64,000 nucleotides of DNA from an uncultured cyanobacterium (GTDB taxonomy: Bacteria > Cyanobacteriota > Cyanobacteriia > Cyanobacteriales > CAWCAG01), in NCBI GenBank assembly GCA_963803805.1, contig CAWDOD010000003.1, forward strand, positions 1 through 64,000, given 5' to 3'. Each line of letters opens with the position of its first letter. Position 1 is the stretch's first letter. A model generated the notes under the pieces. The model was not told the DNA's origin. It was given only the letters and a program-made list of their open reading frames with translations, and ran no database searches. The position numbers and the translations under genes were made by a program. This document shows positions 9,501 to 27,709 of this stretch, piece by piece.

Positions 9501-9887
9501 TTATTTTAAAAACTCACTACCCATGTAATCTTGCCAACGTACTAAGGTAAATTTTGCGATTCCTTTCGGGTCGGTAAAGGCTAAAAAGCCATATTCGTAG
9601 CAAAATAAGTACACCTGCCCTTGCTTATTTTTCCAGTAGTGTGTAAAAAATAAGGGGTTAAAGCCATCGGTCATGAGCGCTTCTTTCCTAATAGTTGCTT
9701 TCCCCGCCTTGTTGTAGTTTTTAAGAATTCTGCGATTAATTTTTAACTGCTTATCTATATTTCTGTACAAGCTGCTTTCTTTCTGCTTATTGCGCTCATA
9801 GTGGTAGTTTGATTTACAATAGGCTGTGCAAAATTTCTTCCCCAGCCTACCTATTATTTCTTCCCCACAATTAGGACATGGCTTCAT
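9501..9887 (-). CDS. Zn-ribbon hypothetical protein, divergent from the recombinase
   Basis: CPNC...KKFCTAYC zinc ligands, NRRILK and YLFCYEYGF. Confidence 0.7.
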   Translation of the reverse strand: MKPCPNCGEEIIGRLGKKFCTAYCKSNYHYERNKQKESSLYRNIDKQLKINRRILKNYNKAGKATIRKEALMTDGFNPLFFTHYWKNKQGQVYLFCYEYGFLAFTDPKGIAKFTLVRWQDYMGSEFLK

Positions 9888-9987
9888 TAGTGTAGATTTT
9901 GACGTTTATTATACGTTTAAATCTACGTTTAATTTTGTCTATATCACAGATTATTTGGTTGTTTATTTCCTCATAATAAATTAACTA

Positions 9988-11121
9988 ATGGAAAAGCTAC
10001 AGAAAATGATCAGCCTACGGCATCTGGAGGTAAATGGCAAGCGGATGATCGGCCTCAAATTTTATCCTGATAAGGTGATACAGGCCTTGGTAAAAACGCT
10101 ACCCACACCCAAATGGCATAAGCAATATCAGATGGCCTACATTAGCAATAACAAGTTGAATTACGCACAATTGTTGAATACATTTAAAGGAGTGGCCTGG
10201 CTAGATATGCGCTACTTCAGCAAGAAAGGCTGGATGGGTTGTGATGACCCTAGTCTGGTGATTGAGGCATTCAAAAAACGAGAAGTAACGGCTGGCTATA
10301 TAAGATGCCCGGAAAGCTTTCTGGATGAGTTAGAACAACGGAAATATGCAGTTAATACGGTGAGGGTCTATGTAAATTGCTTTGAGAAATTTATCAATTT
10401 TTACCCAAAGACACCTACTGAACACTTAGCCGAAGCTGAAATAAAGGTATTTATACAGAATTTAATAAAAAACAAAGCAAGTGAATCCTACATCAACCAA
10501 CACATAAATGCGATAAAATTCTATTTTGAAATTGTACATAAAATGCCCAATAGGTTCTACGACTTTCCAAGACCACTTAAAGCTGAAAAACTACCGGAAG
10601 TTCTGAGCAAAAAAGAAGTATTGAAGATGATTGACATCACTTTCAACCTAAAACACCAGTGCATTATTAGCACGTTATATTCAGCCGGCCTGAGAAGGAG
10701 CGAGCTTATTGCGCTCAAGATTACAGATATAGATAGCCAGCGAATGATTATTAAGGTAAGAGGTGCAAAGGGAAATAAAGACCGACTCAGTTTATTAAGT
10801 GAACGCTTACTTTTAAAGCTCAGGCTATATTTTAGGAATTACAAGCCCCGGGTTTACTTATTTGAAGGCTTTCCGGGAGAAGTTTACAGCGCTACCAGTG
10901 TGAGCAATATTGTTAAAAAAGCTGCAAAAAAAGCGTGTATCCCTAAAAATGTTACTCCGCATACATTGCGACATTCTTTTGCCACGCATTTACTGGAGAG
11001 TGGAACGGATTTACGCTATATACAAACCCTACTCGGCCACAATAGTAGTAAAACCACAGAAATTTATACCCATGTGGCCACAAATGTTTTCAAAGAAATA
11101 AATAATCCGTTAGATTGCTAA
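9988..11121 (+). CDS. Tyrosine recombinase with N-terminal SAM-like domain; candidate cassette integrase
   Basis: Full catalytic set: YSAGLRRSE (R), KGNKDR (K), HTLRHSFATH (HxxR), LLGH and TTEIYTHV (Y). It lies immediately upstream of the cassette array. Confidence 0.92.
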   Translation: MEKLQKMISLRHLEVNGKRMIGLKFYPDKVIQALVKTLPTPKWHKQYQMAYISNNKLNYAQLLNTFKGVAWLDMRYFSKKGWMGCDDPSLVIEAFKKREVTAGYIRCPESFLDELEQRKYAVNTVRVYVNCFEKFINFYPKTPTEHLAEAEIKVFIQNLIKNKASESYINQHINAIKFYFEIVHKMPNRFYDFPRPLKAEKLPEVLSKKEVLKMIDITFNLKHQCIISTLYSAGLRRSELIALKITDIDSQRMIIKVRGAKGNKDRLSLLSERLLLKLRLYFRNYKPRVYLFEGFPGEVYSATSVSNIVKKAAKKACIPKNVTPHTLRHSFATHLLESGTDLRYIQTLLGHNSSKTTEIYTHVATNVFKEINNPLDC

Positions 11122-11124: not shown

Positions 11125-11174
11125 TACAGCGGAACTATCAACCACCAGTGGTTGATAGTCGGTTGTTGTACACC
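11125..11174 (+). other. Candidate primary (attI-like) recombination site
   Basis: Just after the recombinase stop: TACAGC-gga-ACTATCAACCAC-ca-GTGGTTGATAGT-cggtt-GTTGTACACC. This is a perfect 12-bp inverted repeat followed 5 nt later by the first GTT core (11165). Confidence 0.6.
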
Positions 11175-11192
11175 ATTTAAGAAAACGCAGAA

Positions 11193-11804
11193 TTGAATCA
11201 AGAAATAAAAATATCACGTTCGGACTTAATCGCAAAATGCGACCAATATCTGAATGGAGAAATTATAGAAAAGGATTTTGAAAATTATGCGTGGAATCTA
11301 ATAACCGAAGAACATATTGATTGGGACGATGATGTAATATCTGACATCATTTATCAATGGGACAGTCCAGAAATTAACTTTCCGATTACGAAACAAAACA
11401 TAATACTTTGGAAACATCAATTGGAAACTGATGAGGATTTATTGGCGGATTACAATATGTGGAACGCACATATCGACCGACAGAAAAAGATTTGTGAAAA
11501 GTTTGGTTCTAAATGGAATCCAATCAATAAAAAACTGAAAATCGGAGTGGGTTCTGATTTGAATGCCGACCCAATTCACGCATTGAGGCATCCAAAGGAA
11601 AAAGGAACTACAGGTTGGTACATTTGGACAGGAGAATATTCGGAATCTGATGATTTTTTCCAGCCAATGTGTGCTGAACATTTGCTTCAAATCCGACCTG
11701 AATTAATCAAATATTTCGGACTTGATGTTGGTTATCGATTTTTAATTGATAAAAACGAATACGAAGATGTTTGGTATGACGTAAATCTAAAAAATGTGGA
11801 ATAA
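11193..11804 (+). CDS. Cassette 1: Imm33-like immunity-domain protein
   Basis: C-terminal HALRHP..GTTGWYIWTGEYS..DFFQPMCAEHL resembles Imm33-type domains (recognised by eye). Confidence 0.55.
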   Translation: MNQEIKISRSDLIAKCDQYLNGEIIEKDFENYAWNLITEEHIDWDDDVISDIIYQWDSPEINFPITKQNIILWKHQLETDEDLLADYNMWNAHIDRQKKICEKFGSKWNPINKKLKIGVGSDLNADPIHALRHPKEKGTTGWYIWTGEYSESDDFFQPMCAEHLLQIRPELIKYFGLDVGYRFLIDKNEYEDVWYDVNLKNVE

Positions 11805-11808
11805 AAAC

Positions 11809-11871
11809 GGTGTACAACAAAGGGTATAGTGCATGCCCTGCGGGACACGCACCATACCCAAACCGTTAGCG
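11809..11871 (+). repeat. attC-like site 1
   Basis: GGTGTACAAC-aaa-GGGTATAGTGCATG...CACGCACCATACCC-aaacc-GTT. Confidence 0.85.
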
Positions 11872-12207
11872 GCAATACCTTAGTAATAAAGAAATTGGTT
11901 CATTGAAAATCTTGAATTGTAGGATTGACCTGATATTTGGTTTTGTCCTCTCAACCGAAGTACAGTTGGACTTCTCTTGGATTATAAACATGGTTCCATT
12001 TATAACAATTATGAATATGAAAAAAGTAGCAAGAACTCTGGAAATGGTTAAAACATTAATAGTTTTATGTGCAATTGGGGCAGGAACACTTCTGGGGAAG
12101 TCCAAGTACTTCGGTTGCAAGAGAATATTCCAAGCTCAACTTTCCTACAGAAATTCAAGAGTAAGTGTCGGGGGAGAAATCCCCCCTTCCCCACCAAATA
12201 TAATCTC

Positions 12208-13104
12208 ATGAAAAAATCTCCAATTGATGTCTTATTTTACGAGCTATTTGGTTTCTATCCTAATAAGGCTGGGAGTGCTTACGAAATTTTAACCGCTGCT
12301 GCTATAAGAATAATTACTGGTGAAGAAGTGGAATTAGACCAGCGAGTTATGGGCAACTATAGTGATACAATTTATCAAGTGGACGGGGTAACGAAGAGCC
12401 AGTCACACGAATCGATGATTGAGGCTAAAGACTATACAATTCAGAATAAGAAAGTCGGACGAGGAGACATTCAAAAATTGCAGGGAGCATTGAGCGATTT
12501 GCGTTTTAAAGAAGGATTATTTACTTCGGCTACTGACTTTACAAAACCAGCAAAGAAATATGCTGAATCTTCCTTTCTCAATCCTAGTCAAAAACCAGTA
12601 CAATTATATCAGATAAGACCCTCTACCGAGGAAGATGAAAAAGGGCGAATCAAAAAATTTGAGATCACAATGGTTATGGTTCTTCCAAATTTTGAAAAAG
12701 CTAAGTACAAATATGCTTGGACAGAAGAGGCAGTTGAAAAATTCAAAAAGAATGGATTAGCAAACAAACAAATTTCAATTAAGGTCGAGACTCTTTACGA
12801 GGATAATGGAAGTTTTGCCACTAGTATTCAAGATTTCACACATGATAACCAACCAATATTGATGGATATTGATGAAGAATTAGCTAAAGGTTGTTGGATC
12901 TTTCGAGGGCTTTGTATTAAGCATGAAAACGAATATTATGGACTAAAGGGAATTGATTACGAAATCCCTTATTATCGCTTTTCAAGTACGTTTACAATAG
13001 AATCAGAAGGGAAGCCTAAAATATACGTGGCATCTGAAAATGGAGATGTAAACAAACTTATTACGGATAAACAGCTAAGAGAAATGATACGAATCAAAAA
13101 ATAA
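12208..13104 (+). CDS. Cassette 2: Mrr-like PD-(D/E)xK restriction endonuclease domain protein
   Basis: YE...QVDG...IEAKDY motif. Likely ATG at 12208 (MKKSPIDV), after a ~340 bp leader. Confidence 0.7.
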   Translation: MKKSPIDVLFYELFGFYPNKAGSAYEILTAAAIRIITGEEVELDQRVMGNYSDTIYQVDGVTKSQSHESMIEAKDYTIQNKKVGRGDIQKLQGALSDLRFKEGLFTSATDFTKPAKKYAESSFLNPSQKPVQLYQIRPSTEEDEKGRIKKFEITMVMVLPNFEKAKYKYAWTEEAVEKFKKNGLANKQISIKVETLYEDNGSFATSIQDFTHDNQPILMDIDEELAKGCWIFRGLCIKHENEYYGLKGIDYEIPYYRFSSTFTIESEGKPKIYVASENGDVNKLITDKQLREMIRIKK

Positions 13105-13106
13105 AA

Positions 13107-13303
13107 GCCGCTAACATTCTGTATGAAATCATGGCTGGTCAGTGGTATACGGAACTTTAGCTCTTTGTAGAAAGCCCGTCAATCCGCAGGATTGACTTAG
13201 TGTATTGAGAAAAATTAGCAAGCCAATCCTGCGGATTGCCTAGTTAGTAACTTGAAACTTTTGTACTTTTAAATCAGCCACGCTTCATACAGTGGCGTTG
13301 GGC
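13107..13303 (+). repeat. attC-like site 2 (family B, ~195 bp)
   Basis: GCCGCTAAC-att-CTGTATGAAATCATGGCTG...CAGCCACGCTTCATACAG-tggc-GTT. Confidence 0.85.
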
Positions 13304-13337
13304 ACAATTTAAACGAACGACAGTAACAATATAAAAT

Positions 13338-15863
13338 ATGGTTGACTTTAAGAAAAGATTGAACAAATCTGCAATCGACAAGAAAACAGACCCGATTGAA
13401 ATATATGATTCTTTAGATAGGAGAAGTATTGCAGGTCCTTTAAGACCAGCACAGAATAAAATTCTTAAGGAATGGTATAATTCTCAGTCAACCAAAAAAG
13501 ACTTAATTATTAAACTTCATACGGGAGAGGGAAAAACATTAATTGGTTTATTAATTCTTCAATCCAAAATTAACGCAGACCAAGGCCCTTGTTTATATGT
13601 TTGCCCTAATAAATATCTTGTTCAGCAAGCTAAAAAAGATGCCAAAAAGTTTGGTATAAGTTATTGCTCTATTGAACCTGATGGTTCAGTTCCAAATGAA
13701 TTTATAGACGGTAAAAAAATATTGATAACACACGTTCAAAAAGTATTTAACGGTAAAACTGTATTTGGCATTGGGAATGATTACATACCAGTAGAAAATA
13801 TAGTTTTGGACGATTCACACGCTTGTATTGATTCTATAAGAGATTCTTTCACGATTAACCTTGACAAAGACCACCAGATTTATAAAAAATTGAGGGAATT
13901 ATTCAAAGATAGTTTGTCAGACCAAGGTCAGGGAACATTTTTGGAAATTGAGAATGGAGACTATAACTCGTTTTTGCCAATACCATATTGGAGTTGGATA
14001 GATAAGTCTGAAGAATTACTAAGTATTCTTTCAGAGTATCGAGAGGAAACAGAGTTAGCTTTTGCTTGGCCATTTATTAAAGACAACATTAAAAACTGTC
14101 AAGCATTCATATCAGGACAGAATATTGAAATCACACCAATTCACATACCTATTGAAAAGTTTACATTCTTTGATAATGCTAAACAAAGAATTTTGATGTC
14201 TGCTACAACGCAGGACGATTCCTTTTTTATAAAGGGTTTGGGTTTTAATATTGATGCTGTAAAATCACCTTTAACCAATCCCGAACAGATTTGGTCAGGA
14301 GAAAAAATGTTATTGATTCCCTCTTTAATAGATGAAAAACTTGACCGCATCACAATTGTTAATGCATTAGCCTCACCTTCTGCAAAGAACTATGGAGTAG
14401 TATCATTAGTTTCCTCGTTTTCAAAATCTGAAATTTACCATTCACTTGGTGCAATTGTTCCTAAATCAGAACAGATTGGTCAAGTAGTTGACCATTTAAA
14501 AAAAGGGAATTACAAAGAGACTGTTGTCTTTGCAAATAGGTATGACGGTATTGATTTGCCTGATGAAACTTGTCGTATTCTCGTACTTGATGGTAAACCA
14601 TTCTTTTATTCATTATCTGATAGATATGAAGAAGCCAATCGTGTAAATAGTGATTCAATTAATATCAAAATCGCGCAAAAAATAGAACAAGGTTTAGGTA
14701 GAAGTGTAAGAGGTGAGAAAGACTACTGCATTATCTTCTTGATTGGTGCAGACCTTGTAAAATTCATAAAAAGTAGCAGAACAAATAAATATTTCTCATC
14801 TCAGACAAAAAAACAACTTGAAATAGGACTTGAAATTGCTGAAATGGCAGTTGAAGAACTCTCCGACAAGAATCAACCAATGGATGCAATGAAGTCTTTA
14901 ATGAAACAACTTTTACAAAGAGACGAAGGTTGGAAAGAATTCTACAAAGAAGAAATGAATAAAATAGTATCAGAACAAAATAACAGTTCTATATATGAAA
15001 CATTGGTATTAGAGCGTAAAGCAGCAGTTTCAAACTATTCCGGAGACTATGAAAAAGCTTGTGATTCAATCCAAAAAATAGTCGACAATTACTGCAATAA
15101 TGAAAGTGAGCGAGGTTGGTACTTACAATTATTGGCTAGATACAAATATTTAGACTCAAAAGTAGAGGCTAATTCATTACAAAAATCTGCTTTTTTAAAA
15201 AACCACGAATTACTTAAACCAAGTGAAGGAATAAATTATAAAAAATTAGAATATATAAATGAAAATAGAGTTCAGAGAATTTTAAGCTACATAAAAAACT
15301 TCCAAAGCTATCAAGAGCTTATGATAAGCATTGAAGGTGTTTTAAGTGACCTAGAATTTGGAACTTCATCAGAAAAATTTGAATCTGCTTTGAAAGAACT
15401 TGGTTTAATGCTTGGCTTTTTAAGTGAACGCCCTGATAAGGAGTTTAAAAAAGGTCCTGACAATTTATGGTGCGGTGTCAGCAATCAATATTTCATTTTT
15501 GAATGCAAAAGTGAAGTAAACATTGAAAGACAAGAGATTAACAAAAATGAAGCAGGACAAATGAATACACATTGTGCTTGGTTTGAAAGTCAATATGGAG
15601 AATCTCAAGTCAAAAGAATTTTAATCATACCAACTAAAAATCTTTCTTATCACGGAGATTTTGGACGTGATGTTGAAATTATGCGAAGAGGGACACTCAA
15701 AAGTTTGCGTACCAATGTCAAATCATTTTTTAAGGAGTTTAGTAAATACGAAATTCAGTCTTTAACTGATGAAAAAATACAGGAATTTATAAACGCACAC
15801 AAACTAGACATTGAATCATTAAAAACCTTATACTCAGAAAAATACTATAAGAAAACAAATTAA
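13338..15863 (+). CDS. Cassette 3: SF2 (DinG/XPD-like) helicase with C-terminal PD-(D/E)xK nuclease-like domain (Hna-like architecture)
   Basis: HTGEGKT Walker A, LDDSH, SAT and QGLGRSVR motifs; C-terminal GPDNLW...FECKS. Confidence 0.75.
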   Translation: MVDFKKRLNKSAIDKKTDPIEIYDSLDRRSIAGPLRPAQNKILKEWYNSQSTKKDLIIKLHTGEGKTLIGLLILQSKINADQGPCLYVCPNKYLVQQAKKDAKKFGISYCSIEPDGSVPNEFIDGKKILITHVQKVFNGKTVFGIGNDYIPVENIVLDDSHACIDSIRDSFTINLDKDHQIYKKLRELFKDSLSDQGQGTFLEIENGDYNSFLPIPYWSWIDKSEELLSILSEYREETELAFAWPFIKDNIKNCQAFISGQNIEITPIHIPIEKFTFFDNAKQRILMSATTQDDSFFIKGLGFNIDAVKSPLTNPEQIWSGEKMLLIPSLIDEKLDRITIVNALASPSAKNYGVVSLVSSFSKSEIYHSLGAIVPKSEQIGQVVDHLKKGNYKETVVFANRYDGIDLPDETCRILVLDGKPFFYSLSDRYEEANRVNSDSINIKIAQKIEQGLGRSVRGEKDYCIIFLIGADLVKFIKSSRTNKYFSSQTKKQLEIGLEIAEMAVEELSDKNQPMDAMKSLMKQLLQRDEGWKEFYKEEMNKIVSEQNNSSIYETLVLERKAAVSNYSGDYEKACDSIQKIVDNYCNNESERGWYLQLLARYKYLDSKVEANSLQKSAFLKNHELLKPSEGINYKKLEYINENRVQRILSYIKNFQSYQELMISIEGVLSDLEFGTSSEKFESALKELGLMLGFLSERPDKEFKKGPDNLWCGVSNQYFIFECKSEVNIERQEINKNEAGQMNTHCAWFESQYGESQVKRILIIPTKNLSYHGDFGRDVEIMRRGTLKSLRTNVKSFFKEFSKYEIQSLTDEKIQEFINAHKLDIESLKTLYSEKYYKKTN

Positions 15864-15867
15864 AAAC

Positions 15868-16001
15868 TGTGCCCAACAATGTATATAAAAAATAGTCGAA
15901 ATAGTAGTAAAATCAAGGCTTTTGACTCGTATCAAAGTTCGTGCTTAACCGAAAGTTTTGTGCTTCGAAATCGCCTACTTTTCATATACTAACCGTTAAG
16001 C
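15868..16001 (+). repeat. attC-like site 3 (family A, ~130 bp)
   Basis: TGTGCCCAAC-aat-GTATATAAAAAATAG...CTACTTTTCATATAC-taacc-GTT. Confidence 0.85.
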
Positions 16002-16240
16002 GGCAATAAGTAAGTGCTTCTCATCGGTGGATGGTGGTAGCGAGATTTATGCTGCGCTTCGCAATACAATTAGTCGAAGAAATTTGCCCGTAGAAGCTCT
16101 GCTGCTCCACCGCCAGCTACTGCCTCGCGTCATAAAGTGAGGACTGACGTTCTAAGCCGCCATCGCTATATTTGTGTTGGCCGATAAAGTAGTCTTTCTT
16201 ATGGGCGACAGTGAATGATTAATTAAATTAAGAGGACAAC

Positions 16241-16375
16241 TGCCGCTAACAAAAGCTATACACCAGCAGGCGGGGGAAGTGGTCAGCCGCACCCGCAGTG
16301 CCTTCTGCTACTCTTGCTGTTGGCCGATAGTTGCGGGGTGATACGCCTGCCGGTGCATAGCTAAATACGTTGTGT
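16241..16375 (+). repeat. attC-like site 4
   Basis: TGCCGCTAAC-aaa-AGCTATACACCAGCAGGCG...CGCCTGCCGGTGCATAGCT-aaatac-GTT. Confidence 0.85.
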
Positions 16376-16397
16376 GTAATGTCGACTTAACGATAAG

Positions 16398-17198
16398 ATG
16401 AAGAATTTAGAAAAATATAAAGAAGATTTAGAGAATCTGATTTCGGAAGGCGACAGCTTACATATGTCTATGCAATTTGAGTGTTATCCAAAAGAATTTG
16501 AGGAACAATTAAAGCCGAGGTTAAAAGAAAAGTATGCTGATTATGTGAAAAAACTAAAGCCGTTTAAGCAAGACTATCAAACTTGGTATTCAGAATCTTT
16601 AGTTTTACTAAGGCAGTTATTGCCAGATAGAGTTGCTGACTTCACTAAACTCTATGAAAAACCACGGACGAGAAAAGTTATTGAATATGGCAATTATGTC
16701 ATTGAAGACTATCTTCAAAACCTGACCGTTACAAGAGGTTATGAAACTAAAGTTAAACCTGAAGCTGCAATAAGTCAATTTGAACAGCAAATTGCAATAG
16801 TTAAATCAATTAAGAAAAGATTTGAAAGCAGATTATTTGATATAAAGCAATTGACACAAGCTGACATATTTGATTCGGAATTGGATGCAGCAAGAGAGTT
16901 AAACAAAAAAGGATTTGTGAGAGGAGCTGGAGCAATTGCTGGTGTTGTATTGGAAAAGCACCTCGCTCAAGTGTGTGAAAATCATAAAATAAAAATAACT
17001 AAAAAAAATTCTTCAATCTCTGATTACAATGATAAACTCAAGACGTCAGAAATAATTGAAACAAAAGATTGGAGAAGGATTCAACATCTTGGAGATATTA
17101 GAAATCTTTGTGACCACAACAAGGAAAAAGAACCAAAGGAAGAAGATGCAGTGGATTTAATAGATGGAGTGGAAAAATTAATAAAAACGGTCTACTAA
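16398..17198 (+). CDS. Cassette 5a: protein with C-terminal HEPN-like domain
   Basis: AGAIAGVVLEKHL helix and RNLCDH (Rx4H) motif. Confidence 0.6.
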   Translation: MKNLEKYKEDLENLISEGDSLHMSMQFECYPKEFEEQLKPRLKEKYADYVKKLKPFKQDYQTWYSESLVLLRQLLPDRVADFTKLYEKPRTRKVIEYGNYVIEDYLQNLTVTRGYETKVKPEAAISQFEQQIAIVKSIKKRFESRLFDIKQLTQADIFDSELDAARELNKKGFVRGAGAIAGVVLEKHLAQVCENHKIKITKKNSSISDYNDKLKTSEIIETKDWRRIQHLGDIRNLCDHNKEKEPKEEDAVDLIDGVEKLIKTVY

Positions 17199-17221
17199 AA
17201 ACACTACGAACAACAATAAGT

Positions 17222-17788
17222 GTGATCTTAATGCAATTAGAAATATCAAAAATAATAGCAGATTTCATTGAGAATCGAATTTCAGCAAAGGAATTTGAAT
17301 CATGGGTTTATTCAAACCAACATCTTGAGGATGAATTGGGAATGGAACTCTATACAGAATTGATTTCAATTAATTTCAAGGATAGTTCTGCTAGAATAGC
17401 GGTTAAAAAACTTCTCGATTCTGAAATTGATTACAGAACGCTACATCGAACTCAATTAATACAGTTAATTGAAGAAATCGAGTTCAAAAAAAAAGATTTG
17501 TTAGATGGAATTAGGGAATTATACGAATGGGCGGACAAGGGATATGCATTTTTAGGAAGAATTAATTCAGTCGGAAATTTTGGCGAGCAAGGAAAGTCTG
17601 TAATTCTTATTGTAGACAAGGATTTGTCAAATGAGGAAAAATGGAATGTAATTTTGAGAGATGATCCTCATCTCCTTACAGATCTCAAGACTATTCGTAT
17701 GAAAATCGAACAGAATGAAATTCTAATAACAGGTGAAATAGAAACAGTTAAGTTTTTAGGAAGACAATACAAATATTTAGAAAAATAA
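17222..17788 (+). CDS. Cassette 5b: hypothetical protein
   Basis: 188-aa ORF ending directly before ACACACAAC. Confidence 0.6.
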   Translation: MILMQLEISKIIADFIENRISAKEFESWVYSNQHLEDELGMELYTELISINFKDSSARIAVKKLLDSEIDYRTLHRTQLIQLIEEIEFKKKDLLDGIRELYEWADKGYAFLGRINSVGNFGEQGKSVILIVDKDLSNEEKWNVILRDDPHLLTDLKTIRMKIEQNEILITGEIETVKFLGRQYKYLEK

Positions 17789-17789
17789 A

Positions 17790-17858
17790 ACACACAACAC
17801 TGTATATGAAATCATGGCACCCTGCGGGATGCCACGCTTCATATACTTAACGTTAGCA
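17790..17858 (+). repeat. attC-like site 5 (short)
   Basis: ACACACAAC-act-GTATATGAAATCATGGCA-ccctgcggga-TGCCACGCTTCATATAC-ttaac-GTT. Confidence 0.85.
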
Positions 17859-18853
17859 ACAACTCCCCTTCCATTCAAAAAACTCACTTAATAATCAATC
17901 AGTCTGCCCCTATTGTTGTACCTAAAACTTTGGCTACGCTCGGACTCGCCTTATCGATAATGTAAGTAGCGGACTGATAGGCATTCGGCAAACCTCTTTC
18001 CGCACGGCTACCTGCTTAGTTACTTATGCGGACTACTCAGCAGGCTGTGGAGAAAGCATGGTCTGGAACTGAATTCACAGCAACTTTCCCTCCCACCGGG
18101 ACGAGTAGGTATCTGCCAGCAGTGTAGCCTAGCGTGGGGACGATTTGAGATGCAGTTGCTAACACAATGTAAAAACCATGCGCTTACCCACCTTGTGGAC
18201 AGTTTATCAGTCAATCCCGCAATTTTGGCGAGCAGCGCAAAATAGTAAAAGGCCACCAGCCACCATAAATGGATAGGGGCAATTGACAGTAATCATAAAA
18301 TTGCTAACTTAACCTGCAAAATATACCGTGGCGCAAGGTTTTTACACGCGCCCGTTAGCAACAACTCCCTTTCCATTCAAAAACTCGCTGAATAATCCAT
18401 CAGTCTGCCACTAATACTGTATCTAAAACTTTTGCTACGTTCGGACGCGCCTTACCGACAATGTAACTAGCGGACTGATAGGCATTCGGCAAACCTCACT
18501 CCGAACGGCTACCCAATTAGTTATCTATGCGGACTGCTCAGCAGGCTGTGGAGAAAGCATAGTGGAACTGAATTCACAGCAACTTTCGCTCTCACCGGGA
18601 CGAGTAAGTATCTGCCAGCAGTGTAGCCTAGCGTGGGGACAATATGAGATGCAGTTGCTAACACAATGTAAAAACCATGCGCTTACCCACCTTGTGGACA
18701 ATTTATCAGTCAATCCCGCAATTTTGGCGAGCAGCGCAAAACAGTAAAAAGTCACCAGCAGCTATAAATGGACAGGGGCAATCGGCAGTAGCCATAAAAT
18801 TGCGAACTTAACCTGCAAAATATACCGTGGCGCACGGATTTTTACACGCGCCC
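17852..18853 (+). repeat. Cassettes 6 and 7: tandem diverged ~500-bp ORF-less cassettes with att sites 6 (18155-18360) and 7 (18654-18860)
   Basis: Two copies (17852-18353 and 18354-18853), each GTTAGCAAC...GTTGCTAAC followed by TGTAAAAACCATGCGC...GCGCA..TTTTTACA-cgcgccc-GTT. Confidence 0.85.
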
Positions 18854-18887
18854 GTTAGGTGTCATTAAATAAAACTGTACTGCATAA

Positions 18888-19998
18888 ATGAAACAATTAA
18901 CATACATAAAAGCTAAACAGTTAATTTGGGAAGAAAAGGCTGAACCTCAAATAATTTTGAGTGACGATGCTCTAGTAAGGCCATTTATTGTAGCTAGATG
19001 TGATTTAGATGCTGCATTTCTTTTTAGAAATGCTTATAAATATGTTTCAGTAGGTAGACTATTTGGACAATTAGATAAAAAAATAGGTGAAATTGTGCGT
19101 CCAGACTTGTTTGTAGAGGACCCTTCCCCTTTTGGTCACGAATGTGTAGCTGAAATCGTTGAATTAGGAAAAGACATAAAAAATTTTAGGATTGGTCAAA
19201 AAGTTATTATTCCATTTCAAATATCTTGTGGCGTCTGTCCAATTTGTTCATCTGGATTGACAAGTCAATGTGAAAAAACAGGCAGTTTTAATATGTTTAG
19301 CGGTATAGGAAAACACGTTTCTAACGGAGGAACGATGTCCGAGATCTGAAAAATTCCTTTCGCTAATAAAATGCTATTCCTATTCCGGAGGGCCTGAATA
19401 TCGAAGGGTTGGGTAGCGCAAGCGACAATTTGCCAGATGCTTGGTCGAGAGTAGCACCATTTTTATTAAATAAACCCAATCAGGAAGTTCTCATAATTGG
19501 AGGAACGGCCAAAAGTGTTGGACTTTATGCATCTGGATTTGCTGTCAAGATGCACGCCAAACAAGTTGACGATATTGACACTTCAAAGGAAAGAATCGAT
19601 ATCGCTAGGAAAATTGGAGCAAATGTCATCCATAAGAATTTCCAAAGAGCATTCTGAAAGTTATGACTTAATAGTTAATGCTTCAAGCTTAACCAAGGCA
19701 ATTGATTATGGAATGAATCACTTAAAACCAGGAGGAATTTTATCTTCGGCAATGATATACTTAAATAAAGAAAATCAACATACCTTATTTTCAAATGTAT
19801 GCCAAGAATCTCACCTTAAAAACGGGACTGGCAAATCCAATGTCAGATATACCACAGATGTTAAACTTCATAAATGAAAATAAGATTCAGCCTGAAATAG
19901 TTACAACACATCTTAGTAATTGGGAAAATGCAGCAACCGACTTACTCAAGCAGACAACGAAAGTAATCATTAAGAGAAATCCTATTAAGAATGAATAA
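18888..19998 (+). pseudogene. Cassette 8: Zn-dependent alcohol dehydrogenase-like gene, fragmented into four ORFs
   Basis: GHEC and CGVCPIC...C motifs in the first fragment; reading continues in shifted frames to 19998. Confidence 0.75.
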
Positions 19999-19999
19999 C

Positions 20000-20133
20000 G
20001 ACACCTAACAATGTATATAAAAAATAGGCGAAACAGTAGTAAATCCAAAGATTTTAGCTCGTTTCTAACTTTTTGCTTAAATGAAAGTTTAGTGCTTCGA
20101 AATCGCCTACTTTTCATATACCAAACGTTAGCG
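20000..20133 (+). repeat. attC-like site 8 (family A)
   Basis: GACACCTAAC-aat-GTATATAAAAAATAGGCGA...TCGCCTACTTTTCATATAC-caaac-GTT. Confidence 0.85.
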
Positions 20134-21555
20134 GCAATACCTTAGTAATAAAGAAATTGGTTCATTGAAAATCTTGAATTGTAGGATTGACCTGATATTT
20201 GGTTTTGTCCTCTCAACCGAAGTACAGTTGGACTTCTCTTGGATTATAAACATGGTTCCATTTATAACAATTATGAATATGAAAAAAGTAGCAAGAACTC
20301 TGGAAATGGTTAAAACATTAATAGTTTTATGTGCAATTGGGCAGGAACACTTCTGGGGAAGTCCAAGTACTTCGGTTGCAAGAGAATATTCCAAGCTCAA
20401 CTTTCCTACAGAAATTCAAGAGTAAGTGTCGGGGGAGAAATCCCCCCTTCCCCACCAAATATAATCTCATGAAAAAATCTCCAATTGATGTCTTATTTTA
20501 CGAGCTATTTGGTTTCTATCCTAATAAGGCTGGGAGTGTTACGAAATTTTAACCGCTGCTGCTATAAGAATAATTACTGGTGAAGAAGTGGAATTAGACC
20601 AGCGAGTTATGGGCAACTATAGTGATACAATTTATCAAGTGGACGGGGTAACGAAGAGCCAGTCACACGAATCGATGATGAGGCTAAAGACGATACAATT
20701 CAGAATAAGAAAGTCGGACGAGGAGACATTCAAAAATTGCAGGGAGCATTGAGCGATTTGCGTTTTAAAGAAGGATTATTTACTTCGGCTACTGACTTTA
20801 CAAAACCAGCAAAGAAATATGCTGAATCTTCCTTTCTCAATCCTAGTCAAAAACCAGTACAATCATATCAGATAAGACCCTCTACCGAGGAAGATGAAAA
20901 AGGGCGAATCAAAAAATTTGAGATCACAACGGTTATGGTTCTTCCAAATTTTGAAAAAGCTAAGTACAAATATGCTTGGACAGAAGAGGCAGTTGAAAAA
21001 TTCAAAAAGAATGGATTAGCAAACAAACAAATTTCAATTAAGGTCGAGACTCTTTACGAGGATAATGGAAGTTTTGCCACGAGTATTCAAGATTTCACAC
21101 ATGATAACCAACCAATATTGATGGATATTGATGAAGAATTAGCTAAAGGTTGTTGGATCTTTCGAGGGCTTTGTATTAAGCATGAAAACGAATATTATGG
21201 ACTAAAGGGAATTGATTACGAAATCCCTTATTATCGCTTTTCAAGTACGTTTACAATAGAATCAGAAGGGAAGCCTAAAATATACGTGGCATCTGAAAAT
21301 GGAGATGTAAACAAACTTATTACGGATAAACAGCTAAGAGAAATGATACGAATCAAAAAATAAAAGCCGCTAACATTCTGTATGAAATCATGGCTGGTCA
21401 GTGGTATACGGAACTTTAGCTCTTTGTAGAAGCCCGTCAATCCGCAGGATTGACTTAGTGTATTGAGAAAAATTAGCAAGCCAATCCTGCGGATTGCCTA
21501 GTCAGTAACTCGAAACTTTTGTACTTTTAAATCAGCCACGCTTCATACAGTGGCG
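20127..21555 (+). pseudogene. Cassette 9: near-identical copy of cassette 2 (Mrr-like nuclease) with frameshifts, including att site 9 (21366-21561)
   Basis: Matches 11865-13297 from GTT to GTT; 1-nt deletions near 20538 and 20679 break the ORF. Confidence 0.9.
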
Positions 21556-21589
21556 TTGTAGTGCATTAAAAAAGAAACCTCAGTTAAGC

Positions 21590-22063
21590 TTGACAGATTC
21601 GAGACTACATATAGAAAAGTTAGAAGAGAACAGCGACATCCCTTATGATCTACTTGAATTAGCGGATCCATCGAGAATTCAGATAAATGAATATTTAAAA
21701 ACGGGAACTTGTTATTTGGCGAAAGTTGACTCTAGAGTGGTTGGAGTTTTGGTTCTTAACCAAATCGACTCTACAAGTATTGAAGTGAAAAACATAGCCG
21801 TTGACGCACGTGAACAAGGTAAAGGTTTTGGTAAGGCATTACTTAGATATTCGGAATTAGTAAGTCGAGAATTAGGATTTGATAAATTGATAATTGGGAC
21901 AGGAAATTCAAGTCTTGACCAACTTGCGCTTTATCAGAAAGTGGGCTTTGAGATGCTTGAAATTCAAAAAGACTATTTCATAAAGAATTACACCGAACCT
22001 ATTTTTGAGAACGGAATCCAGTGTAAGCATATGGTCATTTTAGAAAAGAATGTAAGAAAATAA
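21590..22063 (+). CDS. Cassette 10: GNAT acetyltransferase
   Basis: NIAV..EQGKGFGKALL and GTGNSSLDQLALYQKVGF motifs. Confidence 0.85.
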   Translation: MTDSRLHIEKLEENSDIPYDLLELADPSRIQINEYLKTGTCYLAKVDSRVVGVLVLNQIDSTSIEVKNIAVDAREQGKGFGKALLRYSELVSRELGFDKLIIGTGNSSLDQLALYQKVGFEMLEIQKDYFIKNYTEPIFENGIQCKHMVILEKNVRK

Positions 22064-22069
22064 AATAAC

Positions 22070-22201
22070 GCACTACAACAATCGCGAAGAAAACATGGGG
22101 CGACACAAACTGAAATCGAGCAATAATCTTCGCAGTTTAGTCCGTCACAGCTGGACAGACAAGAACTCTGAAATCCCACGTTTCTTAGCTTAGCGTTATA
22201 T
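22070..22201 (+). repeat. attC-like site 10 (family C variant)
   Basis: GCACTACAAC...AAGAAAACATGGG...CCCACGTTTCTT...GTT. Confidence 0.8.
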
Positions 22202-22230
22202 TGAATTAGGAATCACCTACCAAAGTCAAC

Positions 22231-23757
22231 TTGAACCTCGTAGAAAAACATTTCAGAAAAACAGAGAAACTTCTCAAGCTGATTGATAAGAACAGAATTT
22301 CGAACTGGCTTCTGAACGATGGCTACTTCCCAGAACAATATGTTTTACCTCCAACTTTTAGGGTTGACAAATTCAAGCTGAAGTCTAAACCCGAATTCAA
22401 GGATATTAATGATCTGCCAAGATTCGAGATAAACTCTATCTCCTATCCAAAATCATCTTTAACTTCTAGAGAGTTCGGTATTCAACACCCAAGAAACTAT
22501 CACGACATAGTATTTTGGCTGAATCAAGAATGGGAGTTTATTCTTAAACATCTCTTTCCTAAGAAACTCAAAATTTTCTCATACAGCATGCCAATTCCCG
22601 TTAACTCAAGATCAATTGGGAAACTAGGTAAGCTGCGTTCAGGAAGATTAATTTATGAGTGGATAACAATGACTGAAAAAGACCTTGTTGCTGAAGCGAG
22701 CAAGTATAAATTAATCGTCCGCTCGGATATTACGAACTTTTATAATTCAATATATACTCACAGTATTGGATGGGCGCTTCACGGACAAGAGAAAGCCTTC
22801 AAAGACAAGAAAAGTAGTTTACTAGGAAATAAGATTGATAAGTTGGTTCAATATGCCAACTATGGCCGAACTAATGGTTTACCAGTTGGATCAGCTTTAA
22901 GTAATTTAATCGCGGAACTGATACTCACCAAGGTAGATTTGAACGTATCAAAAAAACTAAAATCAGTTGACTTTCTAGCTACAAGATTTAAAGATGACTA
23001 TCGAATCCTATGCCATAATGATGATGATGCAAAACACATTCTCAAAGTGCTTGCAGATGAATTAAGAGAGTTCAATTTGCTAATTAATGAATCCAAAACA
23101 GCAATCCTCGAACTTCCTACTGGACTGTACAGACAGCACGATAGAGACTTCCATCCATTCTCTGTTAAGCGCAAGAAAAGTATAGGTTTTAAAACCTTTG
23201 AACTCACATTGCTCAAAGTTCTTGATATTCACCGTGAATATCCAGGAACCAGCATTATTGAAAAATACTTCAGCGAACTATTTGACAAGGACTATATACT
23301 CAAAATCAAATTCTCAAATCACACAGCATCAAAAAAGAAACAGATTTATAGTGCACTCAGTCTTCTCCTATTAACAAAACGAGAATCAGAAAAATCTATG
23401 AGCGCAATTCTTTCACTAATTGAGGTAATATACCTTGATAACCGATCAACATCTTTAAAAGAGCATCTGAAGGAACTTATCATGGCAGAAATTAAACTTG
23501 CTAATGAGAAGAAATCTGCATTTGACTTAGCTTGGCTAATCTTCTTCTCAAGGTATTTGTCATTGGGAATTAATGAGGTTTGGATAAGATGTAACGTTAA
23601 CTCAGAACTAAGAAAGAACTCATTTGTGGCTTCCATATTTTTAAGCAAACAGAAGATATTTACTGATTCGAAAGTGGATCTTTTTCAAAAACCCAAAGAC
23701 TGCAAAGACATATCACTTGCCAAAAGATTGGCAGTTTTCGAGCGAGACAAAACGTAA
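22231..23757 (+). CDS. Cassette 11: reverse transcriptase of Abi/UG (defence-associated) type
   Basis: DITNFYNSIYTHSIGWALHG, GLPVGSALS and catalytic RFKDDY; helical C-terminal extension. Confidence 0.82.
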   Translation: MNLVEKHFRKTEKLLKLIDKNRISNWLLNDGYFPEQYVLPPTFRVDKFKLKSKPEFKDINDLPRFEINSISYPKSSLTSREFGIQHPRNYHDIVFWLNQEWEFILKHLFPKKLKIFSYSMPIPVNSRSIGKLGKLRSGRLIYEWITMTEKDLVAEASKYKLIVRSDITNFYNSIYTHSIGWALHGQEKAFKDKKSSLLGNKIDKLVQYANYGRTNGLPVGSALSNLIAELILTKVDLNVSKKLKSVDFLATRFKDDYRILCHNDDDAKHILKVLADELREFNLLINESKTAILELPTGLYRQHDRDFHPFSVKRKKSIGFKTFELTLLKVLDIHREYPGTSIIEKYFSELFDKDYILKIKFSNHTASKKKQIYSALSLLLLTKRESEKSMSAILSLIEVIYLDNRSTSLKEHLKELIMAEIKLANEKKSAFDLAWLIFFSRYLSLGINEVWIRCNVNSELRKNSFVASIFLSKQKIFTDSKVDLFQKPKDCKDISLAKRLAVFERDKT

Positions 23758-23760
23758 AAC

Positions 23761-23880
23761 TCAATATAACAAACACTATCATCCATAAGCTTACAGAGCT
23801 ATTTGCAAAGGCTGGTGCTATAAGATACTTTTATAGAAATTTGAAAAGTCTAGCTTACGGATGATAGTTGGGCGTTGGCG
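23761..23880 (+). repeat. attC-like site 11
   Basis: TCAATATAAC-aaac-ACTATCATCCATAAGCT...AGCTTACGGATGATAGT-tgggc-GTT. Confidence 0.85.
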
Positions 23881-23908
23881 GTAATTTGAGAAAAACGAAA
23901 AAAACAAT

Positions 23909-24641
23909 ATGAATATTAAACGATTAGCATTCGGACTTCTGACAATTGGACTTATAAGTTGCAATTCGACACCGAAAGAAAAGAACACAAAAGAAACAGA
24001 AACCTATCCCGACATTAAAATTGTAGGTGCAATGAAAAACGTGATGTGGAAAGGCGAATTAGGAAGTAGCATTGATCTTGACACTATTTCGGAGAAAAAT
24101 GGACTTTATGGACTTGGACCTGTAAGTTTCTTGACAGGCGAATTGCTGATTAATAACGGAAAGAGTTATGTGTCAAAAGTTACTTCTGATTCAACAATGA
24201 AAGTTGAAAAAACCTTTAATACATCAGCACCATTCTTTGTTTATGGAAACGTAACTGAATGGAACGAAATAGATTTGCCTTCTAACGTTAAAACAATTCA
24301 AGATTTAGAAAAATTCATTGTCGACAAAACAACTGAATTCAAAAGACCTTTCACCTTTAAAATAATTGGACAGGTTTCAAGTGCGATTATCCATATTCAG
24401 AATTTACCCGAAGGAACAAAAGTGTCATCGCCAGATGAAGCACATCAAGGTCTAGACAAATTACAATATTGGAAAAGAAGATGCTGAAATAATCGGATTT
24501 TTCTCGACCGAACACAAAGGAGTTTTTACACATCACGACTCATTTTTGCATCTGCACTTGATAACAAAAGACGAAAGCAAAATGGGACATTTAGACGAAT
24601 TAGAAATCGGAAAAATGAAACGATATCTACCGAAAAAATAA
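23909..24641 (+). pseudogene. Cassette 12: alpha-acetolactate decarboxylase-like lipoprotein, frameshifted near 24450
   Basis: LYGLGP..LTGE motif; the shifted frame continues IGFFSTEHKGVFTHHDSFLHLHLI. Confidence 0.7.
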
Positions 24642-24646
24642 AAAAA

Positions 24647-24778
24647 TACCGCCAACAATGTATATAAAAAATAGGCAAAACAGTAGTAAATTCAAGGCTT
24701 TTGGCTCGTCAAACTTTGTGCTTAACCGAAAGTTTAGTACTTCGAAATTGCCTACTTTTCATATACTAAAAGTTATAA
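24647..24778 (+). repeat. attC-like site 12 (family A)
   Basis: TACCGCCAAC...family A stem...GTT. Confidence 0.85.
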
Positions 24779-24792
24779 GCAATGATAACTGC

Positions 24793-25215
24793 ATGAAGAA
24801 AATATTAATAATAGCCGCTGTAGTGATAATTGGTGTGATTCTTTATCTGAATTACCTAGTTAAGGAACACGACTTAAGGCCATTACATAAATATGAAGAC
24901 ATTCAAATACCTGTAGGTCTTGATTGTTCTTCTGTCCGATTAGGGAATTTTGAAACTGAGAAATCATATATTGAAAGAACAGAAAGCAAACAAATTCAAA
25001 CGAACAAAGCAACCGGTGACAAGAAGGAATTTTACATGGATTGGAAAAGCAATTGTGAATATGTTCTGACATCAGTAAATGATGAATCTGAAGTGATAAG
25101 AATTAAAATTACTGCAGTTAACCCTGACAACTATGGCTGCTATGTGATTTCTGATAAATATGCGGACAATTACCCAAATTTTTTATCAATTACGCGTGTT
25201 AAAAAAAGCTTATAA
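24793..25215 (+). CDS. Cassette 13: hypothetical membrane-anchored protein
   Basis: MKKILIIAAVV start; the TAA stop lies inside GCTTATAAC. Confidence 0.65.
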   Translation: MKKILIIAAVVIIGVILYLNYLVKEHDLRPLHKYEDIQIPVGLDCSSVRLGNFETEKSYIERTESKQIQTNKATGDKKEFYMDWKSNCEYVLTSVNDESEVIRIKITAVNPDNYGCYVISDKYADNYPNFLSITRVKKSL

Positions 25216-25404
25216 CATTCTGTATGAAATCATGGCTGGTCAGTGCTAGACGCGACTTTGGTGCTTCGTGGCTAGCCCGTCAATCCGCAGGATTGACTTA
25301 CTGTGTTGAAATAATTTAGCAAGCCAATCCTGCGGATTGACTCGGTGGTAAACCGAAACTTTTGTACTTTTAAATCAGCCACGATTCATACAGTGGCGTT
25401 ACCT
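25208..25404 (+). repeat. attC-like site 13 (family B)
   Basis: GCTTATAAC-att-CTGTATGAAATCATGGCTG...CAGCCACGATTCATACAG-tggc-GTT. Confidence 0.85.
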
Positions 25405-25431
25405 TTCATAAAAGAGCAAATTACAGAGCAC

Positions 25432-25956
25432 ATGAAAATAATCCTTTTTACCATCATCTTCTTTGTCTCACTTTCAATTAACGGACAAGGCTTTCATGAT
25501 CGTCATCCAGAACTATCAAAGTTTGCTAAAAATATTGATGACCAATTAGAATCATACAAATCAGTTATACTTGAAAACGAGGCGTTTCTTGATAATATGA
25601 CGGACGGAGGAGGAATTCTAAAAGGCTATTTTTCAGGGGACAAAATCGTTAAAATTGAACTTTGGGCTGGAGTTTCGAACGGCAAACATGAATTTGACTA
25701 CTATTTTAAAGAATCTGAACTGTTCTATATAGTAGAGTCATTCAAGCGATATTCTTATGACGTGAACTCTGACACGTGGGACTACTCTAAACTGGTACAG
25801 TCATTCCAAGGAGACTACCTTTTCTTACCTACTTTTGACTACGAAACACTAGGACACAATAGATTCGAAAATGATGAGTTTGACCCCGAAGAGACATTGG
25901 CTGAGGAAGTAGAAGAGTATGTTAAACTTCTGAACGAGAAAAGAAACGAAAGGTAA
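25432..25956 (+). CDS. Cassette 14: secreted hypothetical protein
   Basis: Signal peptide MKIILFTIIFF; stop lies inside GAAAGGTAAC. Confidence 0.65.
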   Translation: MKIILFTIIFFVSLSINGQGFHDRHPELSKFAKNIDDQLESYKSVILENEAFLDNMTDGGGILKGYFSGDKIVKIELWAGVSNGKHEFDYYFKESELFYIVESFKRYSYDVNSDTWDYSKLVQSFQGDYLFLPTFDYETLGHNRFENDEFDPEETLAEEVEEYVKLLNEKRNER

Positions 25957-26144
25957 CATTCTGTATAAATCATGGCTGTTAGTAGGTTATTGTTCCTTTA
26001 GCTCTTTGTAGAAAGCCCGGCAATTTGCAGGATTGACTTATTGGTGAATATTAATTTAATAAGCCAATCCTGCGGATTGCCTCGGTAGTTCACTGAAATT
26101 TTTATACTTTTAATCAGCCACGAATTTATACAGTGGCGTTAGCT
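25948..26144 (+). repeat. attC-like site 14 (family B)
   Basis: GAAAGGTAAC-att-CTGTATAAATCATGGCTG...CAGCCACGAATTTATACAG-tggc-GTT. Confidence 0.85.
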
Positions 26145-26166
26145 GTTATTAAATAATGAGAAGATT

Positions 26167-27006: not shown

Positions 27007-27052
27007 CAAAACCTAAACTGCATTAAAACGCAGTTTAGCCAAACCGTTGTGC
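26998..27052 (+). repeat. attC-like site 15 (minimal, 55 bp)
   Basis: AACAGCTAAC-aaaac-CTAAACTGC-attaaaac-GCAGTTTAG-ccaaacc-GTT. Confidence 0.85.
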
Positions 27053-27076
27053 GTCATTTAAAAATGAAACTTTGAA

Positions 27077-27700
27077 ATGCAAATTAAACCTGAAGAATTA
27101 GATAATAATGGGTACGTCCTAATAGACAGTTTAGGACATAAGGAACTTATTCCATTTGTGAGAACATACTTAAAAAAGCGGACAAAAATTTCATCATTTT
27201 ACACAGTCTCTAATATAATTATAGTTGTTGCAATAATATTTTGTTTTTGGCAAAATTATGGAATTGGTGATTTTAGTTTGGGTAGTGGAATTACATATTT
27301 TACTTATGGAATGGCTATTGCATTTGGACTGATACCATTACACGAATTTATCCACGTTTTAGCTTATAAATCTCAAGGTGCTGAAAAAACATCCTATGGG
27401 GCGAATTTAAAAAAATTTCATTTTATGGCAATTGCTGATAAGTTTGTTGCCAACAAAAAAGAATTTCAAGTTGTTGCCCTTGCACCATTTATAGTCATAT
27501 CTATTATTTTGGGAATTCTTCTATTTTTTGTTTCAAATCTATGGGATTTTACAATTCTAGGAATATTGCTCACTCATACGGCTTTTTCTTCAGGAGATTT
27601 TGGTTTATTAAGCTACTTTGAATTTAACAATGACAGAGAAATTATAACCTACGATGATAAAGAAAATAACATTTCATATTTTTATGGAAAGATTAAGTAA
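27077..27700 (+). CDS. Cassette 16: DUF3267-like membrane zinc metallopeptidase
   Basis: LHEFIH (HExxH), ALAPF and SSGDF motifs; transmembrane segments. Confidence 0.75.
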   Translation: MQIKPEELDNNGYVLIDSLGHKELIPFVRTYLKKRTKISSFYTVSNIIIVVAIIFCFWQNYGIGDFSLGSGITYFTYGMAIAFGLIPLHEFIHVLAYKSQGAEKTSYGANLKKFHFMAIADKFVANKKEFQVVALAPFIVISIILGILLFFVSNLWDFTILGILLTHTAFSSGDFGLLSYFEFNNDREIITYDDKENNISYFYGKIK

Positions 27701-27709
27701 AAAAAACGA

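Follow-up and report, generated by a model that had tools for sequence, protein, structure and literature searches.

A 64,000-nucleotide (nt) stretch of DNA from an uncultured cyanobacterium (GenBank assembly GCA_963803805.1, contig CAWDOD010000003.1, positions 1 to 64,000; herein the window) encodes, at 9988..11121 on the forward strand, a 377-residue tyrosine recombinase that stands at the head of an array of cassettes with folded sites (11165..46778, same strand). Comparison of its sequence and predicted structure points to an intact enzyme of a mostly Bacteroidota family, related to IntI and XerA, that does not have the insertion typical of IntI and carries a HARP-like domain at its N terminus. 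It is likely that this recombinase inserts and excises cassettes at G|TT, with the HARP-like domain predicted to recognize the folded sites. In integron integrases (IntI) an insertion containing helix I2 is needed for recognition of folded single-stranded attC, and intI usually points away from its array.

The recombinase comprises a HARP-like N-domain, a SAM-like core-binding domain, and a catalytic domain; Pfam places SAM_4 at residues 109 through 184 and Phage_integrase at residues 205 through 365. Its open reading frame (ORF) contains both stretches quoted in an earlier note on this DNA (KGNKDR...YFRNYKPRVYLFEGFPGEVYSATSVSNIVKKAAKKACIPKNVTPHTLRH and PKWHKQYQMAYI...WLD). The RKHRHY catalytic set (R236, K261, H325, R328, H351, and Y360) is invariant in 62 homologues, and the intact protein therefore looks active. 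The AlphaFold2 model of the full recombinase has a mean predicted local distance difference test score (pLDDT) of 84.8. The earlier note had remarked on an extra N-terminal region of ~100 residues before the SAM-like domain, and the first ~108 residues indeed make up an additional conserved domain; because the 62 homologues align across the full length of the recombinase, N-terminal region included, and share invariant W43, F66, and F77, this region is a trait of the family.

Between KGNKDR and HTLRH (residues 267 through 324; 10786..10959, forward strand) the window protein has 58 residues, at the place where IntI has an insertion of ~42 residues with helix I2. Full-length members of the family have 58 to 64 residues in the corresponding KGxKxR-to-HxLRH interval (20 of 20), compared with 100 in IntI (15 of 15 scored), 63 in XerC (5 of 5), and 65 to 66 in XerD (5 of 5); a sixteenth IntI row failed the regular expression used for scoring, and five further rows without one of the motifs were left unscored. 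The alignment with the integron integrase VchIntIA (Protein Data Bank [PDB]: 2a3v) is split into two pieces (query 114 through 279 with chain 12 through 178, and query 303 through 371 with chain 245 through 313), and in the gap 23 query residues lie opposite 66 IntI residues. XerA (4a8e and 5hxy) and XerD (1a0p) align with the recombinase without a break (4a8e, E 1.8e-38). Based on the split 2a3v alignment and the 58-residue interval, the IntI-type, I2-bearing insertion is absent from the window recombinase. Both statements of the earlier note on this segment, that it is short and XerC/D-like and that the IntI-specific insertion is missing, are thus upheld.

The recombinase scores beneath every curated NCBIfam cut-off compared. 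The best score is with XerA_Arch (NF040815; 212.9, cut-off 220), followed by integron integrase TIGR02249 (196.1 bits, cut-off 265, matched in two stretches), XerD (189.8, cut-off 329.6), XerC (176.9, cut-off 335.15), and PRK15417 (122, cut-off 435). Foldseek with the full model returns VchIntIA at the top (E 9.6e-18) together with XerA; XerD appears at 1.7e-8. In a tree of 82 rows (L072 and L075 were dropped for a core below 230 residues, and L105 was left out), IntI forms one clade of 16 rows (support 100), XerC (98) and XerD (99) stand together, and the window protein lies outside all three. It belongs to a 29-row clade (support 96) of nearly all Bacteroidota rows, with Bacteroidales members inside the same clade. 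This clade, IntI, a proteobacterial short form, and forms from the candidate phyla radiation and archaea make up one group (support 93) apart from XerC/XerD, and the branching order within that group is not settled by the tree. Constraining IntI and the 29-row clade to group lowers the log-likelihood by 0.84 units (approximately unbiased test, p-AU 0.475); a sister relation of the two is compatible with the tree, neither shown nor excluded. The earlier note had offered a convergent or a deeply diverged cassette integrase. The core is nearest VchIntIA and XerA by both sequence and fold, and the support-93 group and the p-AU value also allow for kinship with IntI; convergence thus finds no support, and a deeply diverged relative of IntI is the better fit.

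The N-terminal extension (residues 1 through 108; 9988..10311, forward strand) consists of a HARP-like fold at residues ~7 through 73 and a linker with one helix. Modeled alone by AlphaFold, the domain has the order β-β-α-β-β-α-β, with pLDDT 92 to 96 over residues 10 through 70. Pfam HARP (PF07443) is the commonest weak match, found in 6 of 19 diverse N-domains (best E 7e-4, under the 25-bit cut-off); DUF5710 is matched weakly in 4 of the 19. When a profile of 19 N-domain sequences is run against the PDB (177,635 distinct sequences), a single match falls below E = 1, the HARP domain of SMARCAL1 (4o66, E = 5.4e-4), a fork-binding module. A structural aligner other than Foldseek gives Z 6.4/6.1 with the N-domain of T4 UvsW, 6.0/5.7 with the damage-recognition domain of XPB, and 4.2 with 4o66 (root-mean-square deviation 2.0 Å over 49 residues); a Z below 8 can mean merely a common arrangement, and values near 6 are frequent in small α/β folds. 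The XPB damage-recognition domains and 4o66 are also among the weak top rows of Foldseek.

An exhaustive HMMER search with the N-domain returned 3,222 cluster representatives at E ≤ 1e-3, of which 773 reach E ≤ 1e-10; each has one to four matched stretches. Among 87 scanned representatives of at least 200 residues, 54 have recombinase parts (39 Phage_integrase, 15 SAM_4 only) and none has another enzyme domain; the Pfam HARP cut-off is passed by seven, five of them within recombinases. The domain is recognizable in members from Gemmatimonadota and Spirochaetota. It occurs as two tandem copies in relatives L009, L012, L021, and L024, as three in L013 and L041, and as a single copy in a Firmicutes metagenome-assembled genome (L025) and an Undinarchaeales archaeon (L031); the HARP domain of SMARCAL1 also occurs in tandem repetition. 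Taken together, the Pfam HARP matches, the profile match to 4o66, the fold matches, and the HARP-passing and tandem relatives identify the N-domain, at the level of profiles and models, as HARP-like.

The array holds about 25 attC-like sites (AAC...GTT) and is defined by the site table, a cassette rule, covariation, and low GC content (0.32 to 0.38, compared with about 0.42 outside). The sites, found by reading the intergenic regions between 11.8 and 46.8 kb, are 44 to 206 nt long; examples on the forward strand are 11816-11867, 13113-13299, 15875-15997, 16248-16371, 17796-17854, 20007-20129, 27716-27838, 36933-37055, 42024-42147, and 46657-46778. Direct repeats of ~140 nt are found again and again between 15.8 and 46.8 kb. 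Each site starts with a variable box and AAC and ends with GTT and a variable box. In 24 of the 25 successive junctions, the sequence that follows G|TT is the reverse complement of the one that precedes AAC in the 3' site of the same cassette (for example, 11165 GTTGTACACC pairs with 11809 GGTGTACAAC). This rule is the hallmark of integron cassettes; used as the basis of a detector, it finds about 30 links in the window and 0 to 1 in three shuffles. Nearly all ORFs of at least 90 residues between 11.1 and 44.2 kb are on the forward strand with sites 3' of them, and the recombinase gene is accordingly upstream of and co-oriented with the array, as had been noticed earlier.

In 15 aligned sites of ~122 nt, 90.5% of cells pair, compared with 73.5% in shuffles, and both partners vary in 15 of 22 pairs, a count reached by 0 of 500 shuffles; sliding the partner by one to three columns lowers pairing to 37 to 50%. 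Judged by this alignment, the array sites conserve fold rather than sequence. Three pairs are mostly G·U on the bottom strand, which are A·C mismatches on the top strand, and the bottom strand gives the better fold in two of three sites; the conserved G·U pairs favor the bottom strand. Folded in this way, the commonest site family (seven copies) has a 6-bp R box, an internal loop of 4 to 5 × 2 nt, an L stem of 19 continuous pairs with G·T wobbles, and a variable end.

The window has the layout of an integron, with an attI-like site adjoining the integrase gene and cassettes each ending in a folded site with G|TT. The attI-like site (11134..11174, forward strand) is formed by an 11-bp hairpin (11134-11144 / 11149-11159), a spacer, and G|TT at 11165|11166, 44 nt past the recombinase stop codon; the TTGTACACC that follows is complementary to the R'' box of the first cassette. 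A perfect hairpin of 9 to 12 bp, a spacer of 3 to 5 nt, and TG|TT likewise follow the stop codon in homologous loci L004, L005, L006, and L019. A covariance model built from the window sites was run over 31 related loci, and association was scored in the nine full-length loci whose downstream DNA extends for at least 1.5 kb. Matches at E ≤ 1e-4 were found in six of the nine (L004, 1; L005, 4; L006, 6; L012, 1; L019, 6; L032, 4); these loci come from different genera, and all of their matches are downstream of the recombinase in the polarity seen in the window. No upstream model match was found in the nine loci, and L008, also one of them, has no match on either side. Links of the cassette-rule chain are likewise present downstream in L005 (4), L006 (6), and L019 (6). 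Model matches are weak in L043 and in the Spirochaetota locus L033, which has one (E 0.008), a few imperfect palindromes of 100 to 150 nt, and no cassette-rule chain links downstream. In 11 of 19 full-length loci the contig stops within 1.8 kb of the gene on the downstream side, compared with 3 of 19 on the upstream side; frequent downstream ends are expected, because repeats break assemblies.

Mobility of the cassettes was assessed by comparing contigs, not reads, of four runs (X1, X2, X3, and X6); none of the public runs has more than 21% of the words of 11100-21000, and none of those listed for the array stretch is an RNA run. A contig of X6 matches 16369-17854, from GTT to GTT, with six differences and unrelated DNA on both sides. 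Cassette 3 begins at 13296/13297 in X1, X2, and X3 (the GTT of the cassette is 13297-13299), and loose contig ends fall at 15997 (X3 and X6), 17854 (X6), 20130 (X2), and 11165 (X1), the last being the G|TT of the attI-like site. The cassettes are units in populations and break at G|TT; the contigs are silent on which enzyme moves them.

Divergent from the recombinase is a gene for a 128-residue zinc-ribbon protein (9501..9887, reverse strand), a conserved partner that 9 of 19 full-length loci, belonging to several families, have immediately upstream in divergent orientation (30 to 58% identity); the gene next out beyond it is not conserved. Residues C4, C7, C20, C24, G13, R14, N51, and R52 are invariant. 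The protein matches no curated family, and Pfam gives weak matches to treble-clef/FCS zinc fingers; a regulatory or accessory role is possible. Three direct ACGTTTA repeats (9902..9931, forward strand; at 9902, 9913, and 9925, with 11- to 12-nt spacing) in the promoter region that the two divergent genes share look operator-like in sequence, and TATACGnTTAA-type repeats occupy the same place in L019, L006, L008, L004, and L021. The ACGTTTA heptamer is also present in the bottom-strand R'/spacer of the sites.

IntI relies on helix I2 and extrahelical bases to recognize structure. In the mechanism that we propose, the window recombinase would bind the folded bottom strand, with its AAC/GTT R box, asymmetric internal loop, and long L stem containing G·T wobbles, would cleave between G and TT, and would carry out strand exchange of the attI-like site with a cassette site in the fashion of IntI; the HARP-like module would take over structure recognition, reading either the stem or the junction of single- and double-stranded DNA. 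The first cassettes may be expressed via read-through from the co-oriented recombinase gene, and the divergent zinc-ribbon protein may regulate or assist.

Several observations weigh against this proposal. We infer cassette movement by the recombinase from its position and conservation, and the reading of hairpins by the HARP-like domain is a similar step; the role of HARP domains could instead lie in regulation or in targeting to replication forks. Residues 1 through 108 of the window recombinase match no Pfam family, even at E ≤ 10, a Foldseek search of the isolated N-domain against the PDB returns nothing at E ≤ 0.001, and the ACT domains of CASTOR are equally high in the fold comparison (Z 6.5). 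One of the three sites folds better as top strand. L019 also has two chain links upstream, and L008 (Cryomorphaceae, 9504-21110) has the recombinase and the zinc-ribbon partner with no sites or attI-like hairpin detected; it is possibly an empty platform. Two recombinases adjoin sites with no N-domain at all. One is L037 (locus 1-10582), a 272-residue member of the clade that lies, in the classical integron layout, divergent beside two matches of the site model (1312-1433 and 3857-3950; E 1.5e-5 and 0.013), with an IS110-type transposase alongside. The other is a 286-residue paralogue in the window (at 45.7 kb), 37% identical to the recombinase and placed beside the last site. Because of these two, the N-domain is perhaps not required and may assist instead. 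The suggestion made earlier, that hairpins are recognized by another structural route, perhaps via the N-terminal extension, becomes concrete in the HARP-like fold.

The distribution of the gene bears on what the enzyme does in the cell. At E ≤ 1e-40 the recombinase is found in 0 of 25 relatives, including the sole other species of the genus (98% complete), and the N-domain profile matches 14 of the 401 genomes sampled from the phylum: seven have a single N-terminal match (the genome of the window among them) and seven have ORFs of ~175 to 217 residues, five with two tandem copies. A search of 301 genomes of the phylum with Pfam HARP gave five weak matches, none in the genome of the window. 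A three-module member of the family finds relatives in 76 of 201 sampled Bacteroidales species. The recombinase gene is accessory, not housekeeping. Seven genomes of one family (f36; for example, G040:C8:18548-18979) have ORFs of ~175 to 217 residues, most with two tandem HARP-like repeats, that were reported with no recombinase match; one is matched by both Pfam HARP and the N-domain profile.

A housekeeping XerC/XerD-type resolvase of chromosome dimers, merely located beside an unrelated repeat array, would agree with the annotation of homologues as "XerD" and with the presence of only four Pfam Phage_integrase matches in the host genome. This reading was rejected on distribution, since an accessory gene absent from all 25 relatives, with an N-domain confined to 14 of 401 genomes, does not fit that role; the scores under the XerC and XerD cut-offs, the position outside the XerC/XerD clade, and a separate Xer-like gene in the host genome (C1:127003) also argue against it, and we regard it as very improbable. 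It is a more serious, though still unlikely, alternative that the recombinase is the integrase of a larger island, moving or anchoring the whole 40-kb region, and that the cassettes are moved by another enzyme, either in trans or by the short recombinase at 45.7 kb. The whole region is indeed accessory: the same-genus genome (G401) lacks the recombinase and shares DNA with the window only from 49083 onward (92% identity), with no match to the left flank (4000-9950). A second recombinase of the same superfamily adjoins the last site, and L037 shows that an N-domain-less relative can stand beside sites. Against the island, the boundary of the first cassette (G|TT at 11165) is 44 nt from the stop codon and part of a conserved hairpin site, and full-length homologues head arrays of the same polarity in at least six loci of different genera. 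The short recombinase is part of a decayed IS91-type element (44530..46526, reverse strand; Pfam), in which the Y2_Tnp and Zn_Tnp_IS91 ORFs are split; the element is flanked by an orphan R'' box (44224) on one side and the last full site (46657) on the other. Comparison of the window region with the same-genus genome revealed neither island-type direct repeats nor an empty site, the DNA next to the 49083 match in G401 being unrelated.

Alternatively, the sites might be recombined as ordinary double-stranded DNA in the manner of Xer and dif, with no hairpin, leaving the N-domain for fork targeting, regulation, or oligomerization. Xer enzymes act on duplex sites, and the core of the window enzyme is Xer-like in length and devoid of I2; the HARP domain of SMARCAL1 (entry 4o66) is a fork-binding module. 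Duplex recognition, however, needs no covariation, and the conserved boxes, although 44 to 206 nt apart, pair over about 19 bp with two-sided changes at most of the aligned pairs. The conserved G·U pairs favor one strand, and the cassette rule fits the single-strand chemistry of integrons. For these reasons we think recombination of unfolded duplex sites improbable and prefer cassette exchange at folded sites by the window recombinase.

The cargo of the array is mixed and includes a nuclease, a helicase, a reverse transcriptase, GNATs, proteins of the beta-lactamase fold, and a transporter. The first cassette (11193-11804) codes for an Imm33-like immunity domain (E 5.8e-41), a link between the array and polyimmunity loci of the type discussed below. 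An Mrr_cat nuclease-like cassette with its site is present twice (11853-13299 and 20115-21557; 98 to 100% identical). Two tandem units of ~500 bp at 17866-18842, 85 to 93% identical and each with a site-like element (links at 18161, 18356, 18660, and 18856), are probably short duplicated cassettes. An 841-residue ResIII/DEAD helicase cassette (13338-15863), which is common to three other samples, and a 508-residue reverse transcriptase (RVT_1) cassette (22231-23757) are possible defense cargo. A beta-lactamase-fold gene at 38931-40021 is broken into a pair of overlapping ORFs of 122 and 246 residues, and an intact 422-residue paralogue is located at 35656-36924. Beyond the array, the genes at 46779-49083 (SnoaL-like, pirin, and DUF5996) are accompanied by no further site.

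Compared with known systems, the window resembles integrons in having a tyrosine recombinase with a SAM_4-type domain and an array of folded imperfect palindromes with AAC/GTT cores, the G|TT crossover, and the cassette rule. It differs in that the enzyme lacks the I2 insertion, carries an extra HARP-like N-domain, and is outside the IntI clade; the gene is co-oriented with the cassettes, and the attI-like site is itself a hairpin. In classical attC, strand choice is set by extrahelical bases in the L stem; in the main site family of the window the L stem is unbroken and contains G·T wobbles, and no such bases are evident. Integrons in which intI is co-oriented with the cassettes are known as the "inverted integrase" group, for example in Treponema denticola, and share with the window an integrase that reads in the same direction as the cassettes; to our knowledge, their enzymes keep the IntI insertion. 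XerA, XerC, and XerD are like the window enzyme in core length and unbroken alignment, and unlike it in accessory distribution, N-domain, and array context. The fold of the N-domain is like those of SMARCAL1 HARP, the XPB damage-recognition domain, and the T4 UvsW N-domain, here fused to a recombinase rather than a helicase.

The system type is partly known as rAID-1, the recombinase-associated acquired interbacterial defense clusters of Bacteroidales. According to the accessible text of the preprint that describes them (Ross et al., bioRxiv 10.1101/471110), these are present in 226 of 423 Bacteroidales genomes (compared with the family studied here in 76 of 201 sampled species), are headed at the 5' side by a recombinase at least 44% identical to BF9343_RS08045, have close homologues stated as confined to Bacteroidales, and carry mainly T6SS (type VI secretion system) immunity genes. 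The window shares with rAID-1 arrays at least two co-directional downstream genes, GC at or below 41%, and repeated intergenic motifs; an Imm33-like domain in its first cassette and the Bacteroidales members within the clade of the window protein add to the likeness. It differs in its host, which is outside Bacteroidales, and in its mixed cargo, which is not mainly T6SS immunity. No B. fragilis label is found among the 120 homologue matches listed. The same preprint text contains no analysis of a missing I2, a HARP-like domain, hairpin folding, or a G|TT rule, and the main text of a 2025 follow-up, as far as available, calls the mechanism of rAID biogenesis open and does not use the words "integron", "attC", or "hairpin" (PMC12247911). 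We found no literature joining HARP with a recombinase or integron, and, rAID-1 apart, none on Xer-like integrons in Bacteroidota. Within the main-text portions of these sources, nothing was found in print on the absence of the I2 insertion, on the HARP-like module, on a cassette rule for folded sites, or on an occurrence outside Bacteroidales; the rAID-1 supplements (motif figure S4 and tables S6-S7) may bear on the repeats.

A broader reading, which we put forward tentatively and hold to be possible though somewhat short of probable, is that of a second ancient class of integrons: a sister lineage of IntI that never acquired or else lost I2 and that would read folded cassette sites with one to four junction-binding modules of HARP type, together with a dedicated zinc-ribbon partner. 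Such a class would be common in Bacteroidota (38% of the Bacteroidales species sampled), would extend to further phyla and to DPANN archaea, and is expected to go unseen by integron finders for which the IntI insertion is a requirement. In standard surveys integrons are near-absent from Bacteroidetes; the part of the IntegronFinder 2.0 paper at hand reports that an earlier survey had only In0 elements and that one complete integron (Salinibacter) is now known (PMC9024848).

Integrons have been defined by IntI with its I2-bearing insertion; the cassette platform described here is headed by a relative without it. Should the recombinase be the enzyme at work, capture of cassettes as folded DNA does not depend on I2, and gene-capture platforms with defense, immunity, and detoxification cargo would be far commoner than has been counted. 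The HARP-like module is a defined domain for deletion or mutation, and the zinc-ribbon partner and operator-like repeats provide a handle on regulation. If the recombinase does act in this way, rAID biogenesis, whose mechanism the accessible part of the 2025 follow-up leaves open (PMC12247911), would also gain a concrete and testable model.

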